A stretch of DNA of 64,000 nt from a virus: UHGV virus genome UHGV-0018629; one strand, 5' to 3'. Below, one piece after another: positions 5,917 to 16,933 of this stretch; positions within the stretch are counted from its first letter, which is position 1; each line of letters opens with the position of its first letter. The position numbers were made by a program, and so were the translations under genes. A model generated the notes under the pieces. That model worked only from the letters and a program-made list of their open reading frames with translations, made no database searches and had not been told where the DNA came from.

Positions 5917-6390
5917 TTACTTGAATGATTTGACGTACTGAATAGAACCTTTACTATTTACAAAGGCAATTTTACCATTTTTGTTATACATGGTAGCAGT
6001 ACGCTGATAGCCATAAGTTTGTTTACCAGATTGATAACCAACTAATGCGAAATTATCTTCGCCCATTTTATTCTGTTTAGCGCGGATGCGTTCATGACCA
6101 TGCGCCATAAGAACCTTAGCATCACCAGTTGCGATGGATCTACGAGTTTTTTCATCTTCAACTGTATTAACAAAGTCGTCAAATGAATCAAATTTAGCAT
6201 GGGATTTATTATACAGTTTTCCGTCTACTGCATAATTATATCCTTGTACGTCCATCTCAACTTCTGTACCATCATCCAATACAGCAGTGATCTTTTGACC
6301 TTTTTTAAATTTCAAAAGATCAGTAAAAGATTCAGCAATAATTTGAGAATTAATAGCTGCTTCAGTAATAAATTCTTGATATGTTTTCAT
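5917..6390 (-). CDS. Internal protein with capsid-targeting sequence (ipII position)
   Basis: 157 aa; N-terminus MKTYQEFITE|AA matches the CTS/gp21-cleavage pattern of T4 internal proteins. Confidence 0.65.
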   Translation of the reverse strand: MKTYQEFITEAAINSQIIAESFTDLLKFKKGQKITAVLDDGTEVEMDVQGYNYAVDGKLYNKSHAKFDSFDDFVNTVEDEKTRRSIATGDAKVLMAHGHERIRAKQNKMGEDNFALVGYQSGKQTYGYQRTATMYNKNGKIAFVNSKGSIQYVKSFK

Positions 6391-6445
6391 GTATATCCTT
6401 TAAATGTAAATAGTTTTATTCTTTAAGTTTTGGACAATTCGCACA

Positions 6446-6479
6446 CATGAATTGTCCGTTTCTATATTTACCCATTACC
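6446..6479. repeat. 34-bp direct repeat copy 2
   Basis: 32/34 identical to 5798..5831; adjacent perfect 9-bp inverted repeat ggacaattc/gaattgtcc. Confidence 0.8.
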
Positions 6480-6498
6480 AGGTTCGAACTCGGCTTTA

Positions 6499-7080
6499 TT
6501 AAGAATTACCGCGGGCTGCATTAGCAACGGCGTAAGCGTACTGAACATTAGCGTCTTTAAACGTACCTTTAGAGGTATCTATTTCTGCCTTAAAGCCGCC
6601 TTTAGTCATAACATCGGCAAATTCTTTACGGAAAGCCATTGCATCAAGACCTTTCCATGATGATTTATGCTTGGCAAATTCAAGACCAGCATAGTTGACA
6701 GCCTTAGCTAATTTATTATCAATAACCCATTTACCAGCTTTAGGCACAAACTTCGGGCCTTTTTGTTTAGAGAACAGTTTTAAATTCCAGCGACGAAGAT
6801 CACTGTCGGCTTTAACAAAAGCTGCATCTAAGTTACTAGCAACAACATCTTCAATATGGGCAAATTTAAGTCCGTCAACTTCAATATTTAGATCGTTACG
6901 CCAGCGAAGTCCTTCCCATGCGAAGGCTTTAAAGTCAGAAGCCTTTGTAGCTAAGTACCGTTCAATAGGAGCTGTTTTAGGGTCAAAGCCGTTTCCCGAT
7001 CGATAGGTCCACTCATCTTTATTAATGCCTTTGGCCTTTACTACAGAAGCTTCAGCAATAAATTCTTGATATGTTTTCAT
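6499..7080 (-). CDS. ipIII: Internal protein III
   Basis: 193 aa; MKTYQEFIAE|A capsid-targeting N-terminus; position between e and ipII-like gene. Confidence 0.75.
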   Translation of the reverse strand: MKTYQEFIAEASVVKAKGINKDEWTYRSGNGFDPKTAPIERYLATKASDFKAFAWEGLRWRNDLNIEVDGLKFAHIEDVVASNLDAAFVKADSDLRRWNLKLFSKQKGPKFVPKAGKWVIDNKLAKAVNYAGLEFAKHKSSWKGLDAMAFRKEFADVMTKGGFKAEIDTSKGTFKDANVQYAYAVANAARGNS

Positions 7081-7107
7081 GTGTTTCCTTTAAATATTTT
7101 AATTAGT

Positions 7108-7157
7108 AACTGTGAATATACTATCACAGTTTTAGGAGAAAGTAAACAACTTTATAG
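7108..7157 (-). promoter_or_regulatory. Early-promoter-like cassette: GTTGTTTAC box plus 7-bp-stem hairpin, upstream of ipIII
   Basis: Minus strand reads aaagTTGTTTAC...tgtgATAGTAT; hairpin actgtga/tcacagt; related to elements at 16628..16687 and 16954..17017. Confidence 0.45.
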
Positions 7158-7646
7158 ATTTTTGTACGCGTCCCAAGTTCCAGTTCTAAACGTTGCAATG
7201 ACCCGTTTTGCGCGATTAGGGGTTTGATTATACCATCTACTTTTAGCTAAGTTAACTGCTGCTTCATCCCAGCGTTTTTGCTGAAGCATACGCAAAGAGT
7301 TAGTGAATCCAGCTACACCAGTTTCGCCCATTTGGAAGACCATATTAATCAATGCACAACGACGAACCGCATCAAGAGAATCATAAACCGGTTTTAATTT
7401 AGCATTTCTCAAAATTCCGCGAACAGCCGCATCAACATCTTGATTAAAGAGCTTTTCAGCCTCATCTTTTGTAATTACACCATTGCAATTACGCCCAATA
7501 GCTTTATCTAATTCAGATTTAGCAACACTTAGTGATGGACTTTTAGTAAGCAAATGACCAATGCCAATAGTGTAATAGCCTTCTGTATCTTTATAGATTT
7601 TAAGTCTAAGACCTTCATCTATACGTAACATTTCAAATATATTCAT
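7152..7646 (-). CDS. e: Endolysin (T4 lysozyme)
   Basis: 164 aa; [33 protein letters not shown] nearly identical to T4 lysozyme as recalled, with a few substitutions. Confidence 0.97.
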
Positions 7647-7659
7647 AATACCTCCTAAG

Positions 7660-7681
7660 TATTTATAGAAGGTATTTATAA
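7660..7681 (-). promoter_or_regulatory. Two tandem late-promoter motifs (TATAAATA) upstream of e
   Basis: Minus strand tttataaataccttctataaatacttaggaggtattATG. Confidence 0.6.
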
Positions 7682-7682
7682 A

Positions 7683-15066: not shown

Positions 15067-15067
15067 G

Positions 15068-15140
15068 CTGGGAATAAAGGACTCGAACCTTTGCATCCTG
15101 GAATCAAAATCCAGTGCCTTACCAACTTGGCTAATTCCCA
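15068..15140 (-). tRNA. tRNA-Gln (anticodon UUG), no encoded CCA, abuts tRNA-Leu
   Basis: Acceptor tgggaat/attccca, anticodon arm ctgga-ttttgat-tccag; one nt separates it from tRNA-Leu. Confidence 0.7.
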
Positions 15141-15208
15141 ATTATTAACAAAGGCTCTCAAACAAGAACCCTTGATGATAGAGGGTATTAATCAGTGCGA
15201 TATGAGTT

Positions 15209-15235
15209 AATAATAACAAATAATTCTTAAAGCAA
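15209..15235 (-). promoter_or_regulatory. MotA-dependent middle-promoter-like element upstream of the tRNA cluster
   Basis: Minus strand atttGCTTTAag (MotA box) followed 12 nt later by tattat (-10), about 60 nt upstream of tRNA-Gln. Confidence 0.4.
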
Positions 15236-15381
15236 ATTAAACATTTTAACGGTCGGCAAAACAATTTCTTCTTCTATATAAGAGTATTTAACACTCTCAA
15301 CTACACGCAAAAAATCATAATCATAATACTCAGAAGCATTACCTAAAATATTAATAAGTCCTTCAAGCACTTTATTACCAT

Positions 15382-15750
15382 TCACAAAAATAAATCAAAT
15401 ACACGTTCTTCGTCTTCTTCGGATTTATTACCAAGGTCAACTTCTATGTCAAAGACCTTTTTAATGAATTCTGGATAAAGTTGTTCTGAGAACAGTCCTT
15501 CAACCAAGTATTCATAAATAAAAAGCGATTGCTCGCTGAACAAGCCATTACCACAATAACGTTCAGCTTTAGTACTAGAATGTCTGCTTTTAAACTTCTT
15601 TAAAAGATATTGGAATTGTAAGATTTCATGCTCTTCTACGCCAAACAGTGTTTTGGTTTTATAGTTGTCACCATCATTTTCCCAGGTAGTGACATCAATT
15701 ACGTAACCCTGCGGAATTGTAGTACCCAAACAAATATTCATTTTCACCAC
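15382..15750 (-). CDS. Hypothetical protein
   Basis: 122 aa ORF between tRNA cluster and ipI-position gene. Confidence 0.4.
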   Translation of the reverse strand: MVKMNICLGTTIPQGYVIDVTTWENDGDNYKTKTLFGVEEHEILQFQYLLKKFKSRHSSTKAERYCGNGLFSEQSLFIYEYLVEGLFSEQLYPEFIKKVFDIEVDLGNKSEEDEERVFDLFL

Positions 15751-16040
15751 GCTGCATTAATGTAAGTATATTTAATACATTCAAGATCCAAAGGATTCTT
15801 GAAAATATCATATTCAAGAGGACCTTTTTCTGTTTCAATAAAGAAATCAAAATTTACTGTATTAAATTTACGGTCTTCCTTTACTAATTTAACTTGAGAA
15901 GATGAACGGTCAATGTAAACCTTTTCAACTTCAAAATATGTTAAAATACCATAATCATCAATCAAGGATTTAGCTGCTTCTTGATCATATTTATATCCAT
16001 TTTCAATGGATGATACTTTCGCATAAAGAATCATTATCAA
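15744..16040 (-). CDS. Hypothetical protein
   Basis: 98 aa ORF, overlapping stop/start with neighbours. Confidence 0.4.
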   Translation of the reverse strand: MIMILYAKVSSIENGYKYDQEAAKSLIDDYGILTYFEVEKVYIDRSSSQVKLVKEDRKFNTVNFDFFIETEKGPLEYDIFKNPLDLECIKYTYINAAW

Positions 16041-16426
16041 CCTTCATCAACAATAGTGTGCGTATTGGCATTTACAATTTGCCACCAATCAAAGCGATTA
16101 GAACCATAATCTGGTTTGTTTTCATTTTCTTTGATAATGTCACGGAGTTCATCTTCGGTAGCGGCTTTCGCTATTAAATCAGCATATCCACCACGAGGAT
16201 AATAATTATCACCTGCAAAAAGTAAAAAGTTTGGTTTAATGTTATTGAACTCTTCGAGAGTAATAACTTTTCCTGACGGTTGAACAATCTCTACATATTT
16301 ATATCCCAATTTTTGAGCAGCATCTACTGCTTCAAGCAAAGTATCATGAGCCCATCCAATTTGACAACCTGGCTTTTCAGATGGATTCGCCTGATAATCC
16401 GCATACACTTTATACATTCTATTCAC
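16037..16426 (-). CDS. Hypothetical protein
   Basis: 129 aa ORF. Confidence 0.45.
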   Translation of the reverse strand: MNRMYKVYADYQANPSEKPGCQIGWAHDTLLEAVDAAQKLGYKYVEIVQPSGKVITLEEFNNIKPNFLLFAGDNYYPRGGYADLIAKAATEDELRDIIKENENKPDYGSNRFDWWQIVNANTHTIVDEG

Positions 16427-16643
16427 CTTTAGAAATTTTATCCATAACGATAGCGATTAAACCAATTAAAAATGCTACTACAAGTGAAAACACATTTTCT
16501 GCTGTAGTTAATAATCCACATATAAATCCAACAAACATTGAAAAACTAAAAGCAGAAGCAGAAATTGCAATAGCAACATTTCGAATTAATTCACAACGTT
16601 TCATTTTTATTCTCCTCAGTAGTTGATAGGGTAATAGTATCAC
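16419..16643 (-). CDS. Small membrane protein
   Basis: 74 aa; hydrophobic segments AIAISASAFSFSMFVGFICGLL and FSLVVAFLIGLIAIV. Confidence 0.45.
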   Translation of the reverse strand: MILLPYQLLRRIKMKRCELIRNVAIAISASAFSFSMFVGFICGLLTTAENVFSLVVAFLIGLIAIVMDKISKGE

Positions 16644-16687
16644 ACTATTACCCTACTGTAAACAACTTTGTGAAATTATTTTAAATC
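16628..16687 (-). promoter_or_regulatory. Early-promoter-like cassette: 11-bp-stem hairpin plus conserved 30-mer with GTTTAC box
   Basis: Perfect hairpin agggtaatagt-atcac-actattaccct; 30-mer gtaaacaactttgtgaaattattttaaatc identical to 16988..17017. Confidence 0.5.
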
Positions 16688-16933
16688 TTCTAATCGTTTC
16701 TTCATCTTAGAACCATTTTTAGCAATTTCTCCTGCATCGGAGCATAATGCTAAAAGCGCTTTAACTTTAGTTTGATCTCCTTTAAAAGACGAAGGATCGA
16801 CTGCAGCAGCAAGTTCTTTAATACGAGAGAAAAGACGCTCAGCTTCAGCTAAAGCCATTCCAAGCTTTACTTCCATACCGTGGGAAGATTCAGTGATAGT
16901 AGTTTTTGTAGCAAACTCTTTGAAAGTTTTCAT
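16676..16933 (-). CDS. Internal-protein-like small protein (ipI position)
   Basis: 85 aa; N-terminus MKTFKEFATK resembles internal-protein CTS; lies between 57B and tRNAs. Confidence 0.55.
   Translation of the reverse strand: MKTFKEFATKTTITESSHGMEVKLGMALAEAERLFSRIKELAAAVDPSSFKGDQTKVKALLALCSDAGEIAKNGSKMKKRLEDLK

Follow-up and report, generated by a model that had tools for sequence, protein, structure and literature searches.

The stretch of DNA under study, a 64-kb window of the virus genome UHGV-0018629 (the whole 64,000 nucleotides (nt) analysed), is a segment of a Tequatrovirus (T4-like) genome, in which five small open reading frames (ORFs), designated here ORF1 to ORF5, begin with the N-terminal leader of the T-even internal proteins (IPs). 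All five are probably T-even IPs, which would be targeted to the capsid, processed by the prohead protease gp21 and injected. ORF1, ORF2 and ORF5, which are situated in the known IP loci, are as judged by sequence named IPs with nothing new in them, and ORF3 and ORF4, located between e.8 and the rnaC/tRNA cluster, are candidate IPs that exhibit all the leader, cut-site and composition features of this class that were looked for. The original prediction, made from the nucleotide sequence alone, had claimed five genes beginning with the leader signature, and this is borne out at every position that it gave, with all five ORFs found on the minus strand, about which it was silent. Its further proposal that these genes encode capsid-targeted IPs is supported, since three of them correspond to named IPs in expert-annotated genomes and the remaining two share the sequence-level features.

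A six-frame scan of the window with the motif MK[TS][YF]xxF revealed exactly five matches, each of which coincides with the first ATG of a minus-strand ORF of 85-193 amino acids (aa), preceded in all five cases by an AGGA-type Shine-Dalgarno sequence located 6-9 nt 5' of the ATG. Shuffled windows (n=200) were found to contain on average 0.085 matches with a maximum of 2, and the use of a looser leader pattern on the window added only two further ORFs, both of which are unrelated. A slightly relaxed motif was also scanned in eight related loci, derived from phages ECML-134, AR1, fD1, T4, PST, RB32 and KpV477 and from the metagenomic contig L005. The matches comprised genes named Ip by expert annotators (IpI, II, III, 4, 5, 6, 7 and 9), ORFs at the e.8-tRNA junction and two leader-bearing ORFs of L005, with no others. 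This confinement to three classes of ORFs, together with the shuffling result, means that the motif is far from chance and highly specific for the class, and a chance match (0.085 expected versus 5 found) is hence ruled out. Among published texts, only one of the leader strings was matched, that of IPIII, in a publication on vaccine engineering.

The first 10 residues of IPIII are sufficient for packaging, with residues 4 and 7 controlling targeting and residues 8 and 10 controlling processing, and gp21 cleaves after L/I-x-E (PMC9026906). Aromatic residues occupy positions 4 and 7 in all five ORFs, as Y4/F7 in ORF1-4 and as F4/F7 in ORF5, the latter as in T4 IPI, and ORF1-4 also carry I/L8 and E10. 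At the same time, a (L/I)-x-E site with a small residue after it is present in each ORF inside the N-terminal 10-19 residues, and in the order ORF1 to ORF5 it reads ITE↓A, IAE↓A, LTE↓A, LNE↓A and ITE↓S (arrows mark predicted cuts). The claim that all five possess a leader of about 10 residues ending in the cut site thus holds for ORF1-4 but not for ORF5 (MKTFKEFATK), which has K instead of E at position 10 and I-T-E at positions 13-15.

Apart from the leader, the predicted mature forms of the five proteins are alike in being basic, Lys/Ala-rich and Cys-poor (12-15% K, 9-18% A, not more than one Cys and an isoelectric point (pI) of 9.0-9.65), like T4 IPI, II and III. Such a composition has reportedly served as a criterion for IPs. 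A filter for IP-like composition was passed by four of the 84 crude window genes, all four among the five leader ORFs, although this test is partly circular, because its thresholds were derived afterwards from the values of the IPs. The cognate protease and scaffold are encoded in the same window: the gp21 prohead protease (45911..46549, plus strand; Peptidase_S77, 1.5e-111), by which the leaders would be cleaved off behind (L/I)-x-E, the gp22 scaffolding core protein (46580..47389, plus strand; T4_CASP, 7.8e-90), which is thought to be bound by the leaders, and gp67 (45244-45486), in addition to gp23 and gp24. IPs co-purify with gp22 (PMC9026906).

Among the named IPs, ORF1 (5917..6390, minus strand, 157 aa) is Ip4, with matches to DUF7412 (5.7e-96) and phrog_3155 'internal virion protein' (6e-102). 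Its leader MKTYQEFITE↓A is encoded by 6361-6390, giving a predicted mature protein of 147 aa (pI 9.1). In AR1, RB32 and PST this 157-aa gene bears the name Ip4/ipIV, and the fD1 counterpart g129, with the same 157-aa size and leader, is flagged as virion-associated. Ip4 has in addition a second I-x-E (I-A-E↓S at residues 18-20) after the canonical I-T-E that ends at residue 10. ORF2 (6499..7080, minus strand, 193 aa) is IpIII, with 96.4% identity to T4 IPIII over 193 aa and a match to phrog_5341 (4e-118); its leader MKTYQEFIAE↓A is encoded by 7051-7080 and the mature protein has 183 aa (pI 9.65). ORF5 (16676..16933, minus strand, 85 aa) is Ip5, 100% identical to PST IpV and matching phrog_3499 'internal head protein' (1e-49). 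It has an IPI-type leader, MKTFKEFATKTTITE↓S, encoded by 16889-16933, and a predicted mature protein of 70 aa (pI 9.2). In size and position ORF5 equals RB32 Ip5, which is annotated 'replaces ipI', and since its mature part is unrelated to T4 IPI, ORF5 can be regarded as a replacement of ipI. Synthesis of T4 IPs takes place early as well as late, and inspection of promoters revealed T4 early-type promoters with stem-loops for ORF2 and ORF5 and none that is obvious for ORF1. The fused promoter/stem-loop elements (aaagttgtttac...gatact/tatatt) lie ahead of ORF2 (~7085-7130) and ORF5 (16940-16990), with another behind ORF5 (16640-16675), in every case on the minus strand, and are similar to the PeSL-like elements that Arbiol et al. 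described in association with IPs.

ORF3 (11512..12075, minus strand, 187 aa) matches phrog_2280 'unknown function' (2e-53). Its leader MKTYAEFLTE↓AA is encoded by 12046-12075, and the predicted mature protein of 177 aa (pI 9.5) is Cys-free with 14.7% K and 12.4% A. The sequence F-L-T-E↓A of ORF3 is the same as that at residue 65 of the window gp23, the known cut position of T4 gp23. ORF4 (12201..12674, minus strand, 157 aa) matches the same phrog_2280 'unknown function' (2.6e-60), and its leader MKSYTQFLNE↓AVLNE↓A, encoded by 12630-12674, contains two candidate cut sites, L-N-E at residues 8-10 and L-N-E at 13-15. Depending on the site used, the predicted mature protein would have 142-147 aa (pI 9.5-9.6, 14% K, 18% A, Cys-free). 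Redundant propeptide cut sites have been reported for phiKZ-like phages (PMC9026906). ORF3 is found in 165 and ORF4 in 512 phage records, and among the matches listed all are 'hypothetical' or unannotated, an exception being the UniRef entry of a Klebsiella phage homolog named 'Internal head protein'. Full-length conservation in these 165 and 512 genomes, respectively, speaks against ORF3 and ORF4 being non-coding.

Most aligned homologs of the ORF4 family, including those of Jiaodavirus (Klebsiella) and Yersinia phages with 53-56% identity, retain the leader and L-x-E↓A, and one homolog, P0004, has M at the -3 position. Behind the leader a conserved N-domain of ~60 residues is present, and the C-terminal halves differ between homologs. 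A pairwise comparison of the family members P0012 and P0010 shows a common leader and first ~55 residues followed by complete divergence, which indicates that domains are swapped downstream of an N-terminal module that is conserved. Homologs of this family are also present in other Klebsiella and Yersinia T4-like phages, with location at the same tRNA/e.8 junction established for Klebsiella phage KpV477 (Jiaodavirus). The KpV477 gene (4841-5231 of the analysed locus L006) is annotated as two short ORFs, kpv477_139 and kpv477_138, while tblastn aligns a full-length 177-aa homolog, which suggests a frameshift or a sequencing error. For ORF3, an exhaustive HMMER search for distant homologs yielded only P0026 (31% identity), plus a doubtful repeat protein P0028. 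P0026 keeps the leader, with the N-terminus MITFNEFLNE↓SEMINE↓A, and is encoded on L005, a T4-like contig, next to a gene for an ART-PolyVal/DUF3990 protein beginning with MITFKQFLNE (the ART-PolyVal/DUF3990 gene and the ORF3 homolog at 2092-2526 and 1419-2033, both plus strand), beside a 30.3-like gene. This neighbour looks like an IP-type leader placed on an ADP-ribosyltransferase-like enzyme. Since two different leader-bearing proteins lie side by side on L005, the tag would mark several cargoes there too.

The relation between ORF3 and ORF4 bears on the claim that the bodies of these proteins have no obvious relation to each other. By BLASTP this is correct, as no significant similarity between ORF3 and ORF4 beyond the leader is found, and a profile-profile comparison of the leaderless proteins gives a probability of 3%. 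However, PHROGs assigns both to phrog_2280, and their predicted models share the same helical topology, made up of a helix for the leader, three short helices, a linker that is disordered and rich in Pro/Lys/Ala, and a long helical hairpin. ORF3 and ORF4 may be distant paralogs.

The e-to-tRNA position of ORF3 and ORF4 had been called unexpected, and this is borne out, with the literature of 2025 still speaking of 'the two Ip loci'. Location in a known IP locus thus applies to ORF1, ORF2 and ORF5 and does not apply to ORF3 and ORF4; such a two-locus location is a habit of the family, not a mechanistic requirement. A scan for repeats and terminators revealed that ORF4 and ORF3 each lie between successive copies of a terminator hairpin that forms a 40-nt direct repeat (all on the minus strand). 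Copy 1 (12712..12751) is homologous to the single T4 hairpin downstream of rnaC, copy 2 (12157..12196), located between ORF4 and ORF3, is 95% identical to copy 1, and copy 3 (11470..11509), downstream of ORF3, is 63% identical and forms the distal edge of the insertion relative to T4. Three hairpins in the window thus stand against one in T4, with ORF3 and ORF4 contained in a clean ~1.2-kb insertion (11504-12715), and rnaC (12799-12937) and rnaD (12944-13061) retained. Copy 2 corresponds to the RB32 note 'flanked by 34 bp imperfect direct repeat' at the ORF4 ortholog, from which the annotators drew no conclusion regarding IPs. ORF4 has the T4 late-promoter consensus TATAAATA at ~12711-12718, 44 nt 5' of the start codon. 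ORF3 and ORF4 have in common a 42-nt repeat, with 74% identity at the DNA level, that extends over the Shine-Dalgarno sequence and codons 1-11. In being self-contained and flanked by repeats, the cassette structure agrees with the one described by the Krisch laboratory at the two classical IP loci and proposed as a substrate for shuffling. The rnaC/e.8 hairpin would be a third IP locus, with ORF3 and ORF4 in tandem terminator-flanked cassettes.

Virion proteomics of Yersinia phage fD1 lends weak support to ORF4. Its g140, an ORF4 ortholog with ~97% identity, meets the strict threshold used to call virion association in liquid chromatography-tandem mass spectrometry, as do the other two leader-bearing proteins of this phage, g129 (Ip4) and g146 (IpI type). 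The publication on phages fPS-2/65/90 contains no virion proteome, in a study of phage SH7 only 13 structural proteins were detected, and for phages phiR1-RT/fHe-Yen9-01 there was no usable entry for the ORF4-family homolog. Cleavage would generate neo-N-termini of ORF3 and ORF4 such as AAKLPSEADLTK, ASSTEIQAVAK and AVLNEASSTEIQAVAK; for g140 either of the latter two would be expected, and the peptide MKSYTQFLNEAVLNEASSTEIQAVAK would count against cleavage.

Several observations weigh against treating ORF3 and ORF4 as processed and injected anti-defence proteins. The virion proteome of fD1 is unspecific, with 113 of 277 gene products passing the threshold, including DenV, lysozyme e and NudE, so that three out of three IP-type proteins would pass in ~7% of cases by chance. 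The fD1 proteome is for this reason supportive of ORF4 packaging but not decisive, and for the phage under study we infer packaging, cleavage and injection of ORF3 and ORF4 from their sequences. In RB32 and RB14, where the expert annotation assigns the names Ip4, 5, 7 and 9, the orthologs of both genes have remained hypothetical. T4 and PST lack ORF3 and ORF4, and both genes are thus dispensable. ORF3 is without a canonical late promoter, having only AATAAATA (7/8 positions), and may therefore rely on transcription reading through a terminator from ORF4. The predicted AlphaFold structures are mediocre (predicted local distance difference test scores of 70 and 68), and Foldseek comparison of the ORF4 model with the PDB gave no match with E <1. 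Against BFVD, the models of ORF3 and ORF4 matched only orthologs and other uncharacterised T4-like proteins, and nothing above threshold was obtained for either with Pfam and NCBIfam. The profile and structure searches that the original prediction had proposed as a check thus yielded no functional family or fold match, and since the models match nothing of known function, an anti-GmrSD role is argued from analogy only.

The pathway envisaged for an IP would begin with the N-terminal targeting sequence of 10-15 residues, whose aromatic residues at positions 4 and 7 would do the targeting, docking the protein on the gp22 core during prohead assembly. Cleavage by gp21 after (L/I)-x-E would then leave in the head a mature protein that is basic, rich in Lys/Ala and free of Cys and that would remain with the DNA, be injected and act before any phage gene expression. 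Its most likely action would be stoichiometric inhibition of host nucleases that attack glucosyl-hydroxymethylcytosine (glucosyl-hmC) DNA, i.e. GmrSD-family type IV restriction enzymes. The original prediction had mentioned that T4 IPI blocks a host restriction system, which is true but incomplete, as T4 Ip1, Ip2 and Ip3 inhibit one GmrSD each, a different one in every case and with no cross-protection. Ip3 inhibits the two-gene GmrSD of ECOR17, IpIII without its leader is still functional in the cytoplasm, and other IPs are predicted by Silas et al. to inhibit GmrSD as well. Only ORF2 shows homology to Ip1/Ip2/Ip3 (IpIII, 96%), and ORF1, ORF3, ORF4 and ORF5 share the leader alone. ORF2 very probably blocks ECOR17-type GmrSD, because its T4 IPIII ortholog does, and a GmrSD-like target would by analogy be expected for ORF1, ORF3, ORF4 and ORF5.

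Other explanations concern primarily ORF3 and ORF4. Their leader could be a recombination scar, whereby an unrelated early gene gained the first ~11 codons without any packaging or processing of its product, and a route for this exists in the shuffling of IP cassettes by exchange in the conserved segment of ribosome-binding site plus first codons and in flanking hairpins. The 42-nt repeat that joins the two genes at the DNA level and the hairpin repeats that flank the cassettes, elements at which shuffling has been proposed in the literature, are consistent with such a scar, as is the absence of an Ip name for the orthologs in RB32/RB14. However, the leader is kept at the protein level in homologs of 31-56% identity, where the sequences have diverged but the aromatic positions and L-x-E↓A remain. 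A scar would also leave the IP-like composition of the body unexplained and conflicts with the detection of the ORF4 ortholog in virions, which makes it quite improbable. An unlikely alternative of another kind is that both proteins are packaged but play a structural role, in neutralisation of DNA charge or in core assembly or ejection, similar to a role put forward for IPIII in morphogenesis of the head, rather than an anti-defence role. Their basic, Lys/Ala-rich nature fits this role, IP lysines have been found by nuclear magnetic resonance to touch DNA phosphates (PMC3012670), IPIII- and IP0 mutants accumulate polyheads (PMC9026906), and the predicted long helical hairpins match no enzyme or inhibitor fold. 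This has to be set against the finding that the three T4 IPs, which share this composition, all turned out to act as inhibitors specific for GmrSD. Moreover, ORF3 (165 records) and ORF4 (512 records) are patchily distributed and T4 and PST lack them, a pattern more suited to an accessory arms-race gene than to a structural requirement, and C-terminal halves in the ORF4 family are swapped between genera.

It is also possible, without being the likelier case, that ORF3 and ORF4 are injected effectors directed against a target other than GmrSD, such as another first-response defence, or host transcription as with Alt. The bodies of ORF3 and ORF4 are unrelated to Ip1-3, the leader-tagged ART-PolyVal/DUF3990 protein beside the ORF3-like protein of L005 suggests that the tag carries diverse cargo, and the ORF4-family N-domain is conserved across genera with different hosts. 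Nevertheless, every small IP characterised so far targets GmrSD, as Silas et al. predict for the rest. Tentatively, and with some doubt, these elements can be combined into a reading in which the rnaC/e.8 hairpin is an unrecognised third IP locus of Tevenvirinae, occupied by a modular family that would act against a first-response defence other than the GmrSD variants of Ip1-3. Such a family would be built from the leader, the ~60-residue helical N-domain and a swappable C-terminal hairpin, with the N-domain serving as an extended packaging/ejection module or as a shared binding handle.

The reading of all five ORFs as capsid-targeted IPs had been presented as an expanded and new repertoire. 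This stands for the two unnamed families at the third site but not for the rest, as three of the five are already named and variable repertoires have long been described. Descriptions of polymorphic sets of such tagged IPs in T-even phages go back to Repoila et al. 1994, the numbers reported being 'at least 10' and, by 2007, '>30 known variants'. Only the third locus is modestly new, and the variant lists of Repoila 1994 and Comeau 2007 might already contain both families. The finding is real but mostly ordinary and holds no surprise for a specialist. Its importance derives from IPs being the first molecules of the phage in the cell, with those of T4 inhibiting type IV restriction enzymes, a major determinant of T-even host range, and knowledge of the full IP set of a phage helps to predict and engineer the host range of therapy phages. 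With ORF3 and ORF4, the catalogue gains a third locus as well as a family found in hundreds of Tevenvirinae genomes, almost always as 'hypothetical'. The two ORFs constitute two cheap and well-defined candidates for anti-defence screens and illustrate a simple annotation rule, namely leader plus L-x-E plus composition.

As to the surrounding DNA, bases 5800-17100 exhibit ~95% identity to ECML-134, AR1, Phaginator, CrRp10 and others at 80-86% query coverage. The gene order is that of T4, with vs.8, IP genes, e, nudE, e.2-e.8, rnaC/rnaD and the tRNA cluster followed by tRNA.2-4, an IP gene, 57B, 57A, 1, 3, 2 and 4, and genes 53 and 5 through 24 are on the plus strand in T4 order. Gene 57B (17006-17461, minus strand), directly upstream of Ip5 in the order of transcription, matches the Pfam family Acb1 (anti-CBASS nuclease) with 2.6e-60, and since an injected-IP gene thereby adjoins an anti-CBASS match, a small anti-defence neighbourhood can be envisaged. 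Between rnaD and tRNA-Arg, which are adjacent in T4, lies a 184-aa ORF with a MUG113/T5orf172 (GIY-YIG-like) domain (13036-13590, minus strand), probably a mobile insertion because its 3' end overlaps the rnaD homolog by ~26 nt. A GIY-YIG/NUMOD3 homing-endonuclease gene (14246-14896, minus strand; segD in AR1) divides the nine-tRNA cluster into six and three.

Compared with known systems, ORF2 has the same 193-aa length, 96% identity, identical leader MKTYQEFIAE and position beside gene e as T4 IPIII (Ip3), from which it differs by seven substitutions and by having Ip4 as a neighbour, where T4 has ipII and denV. ORF1 and ORF5 equal Ip4 and Ip5 of T2, T6, RB32, RB70 and PST in size, position and sequence, with no notable difference. 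With T4 IPI (Ip1, a GmrSD inhibitor) ORF5 shares the locus upstream of 57B and the long leader type MKTFKEF...ITE. The T4 IPI leader MKTFKEFTSTTTPVSTITE↓A has I-T-E at residues 17-19, as compared to 13-15 in ORF5, in a parallel design, and its cleavage product is the 76-residue IPI*. The two hyperplastic loci for IPs in T-even phages (ipII/ipIII beside e; ipI beside 57B) and the ORF3/ORF4 site have in common the leader, the cut site, the composition and a cassette of promoter and stem-loop repeat, but the stem-loops are AT-rich with early promoters in the former and G+C-rich intrinsic terminators in the latter. Beyond small IPs, T4 Alt, a packaged ADP-ribosyltransferase, and the ejection proteins of phiKZ/SPN3US are likewise propeptide-tagged, trimmed after Glu by a gp21-family protease and ejected. 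However, the leader of Alt is different, and Alt itself is a large enzyme processed at both termini, whereas the five ORFs are small and without a recognisable catalytic domain.

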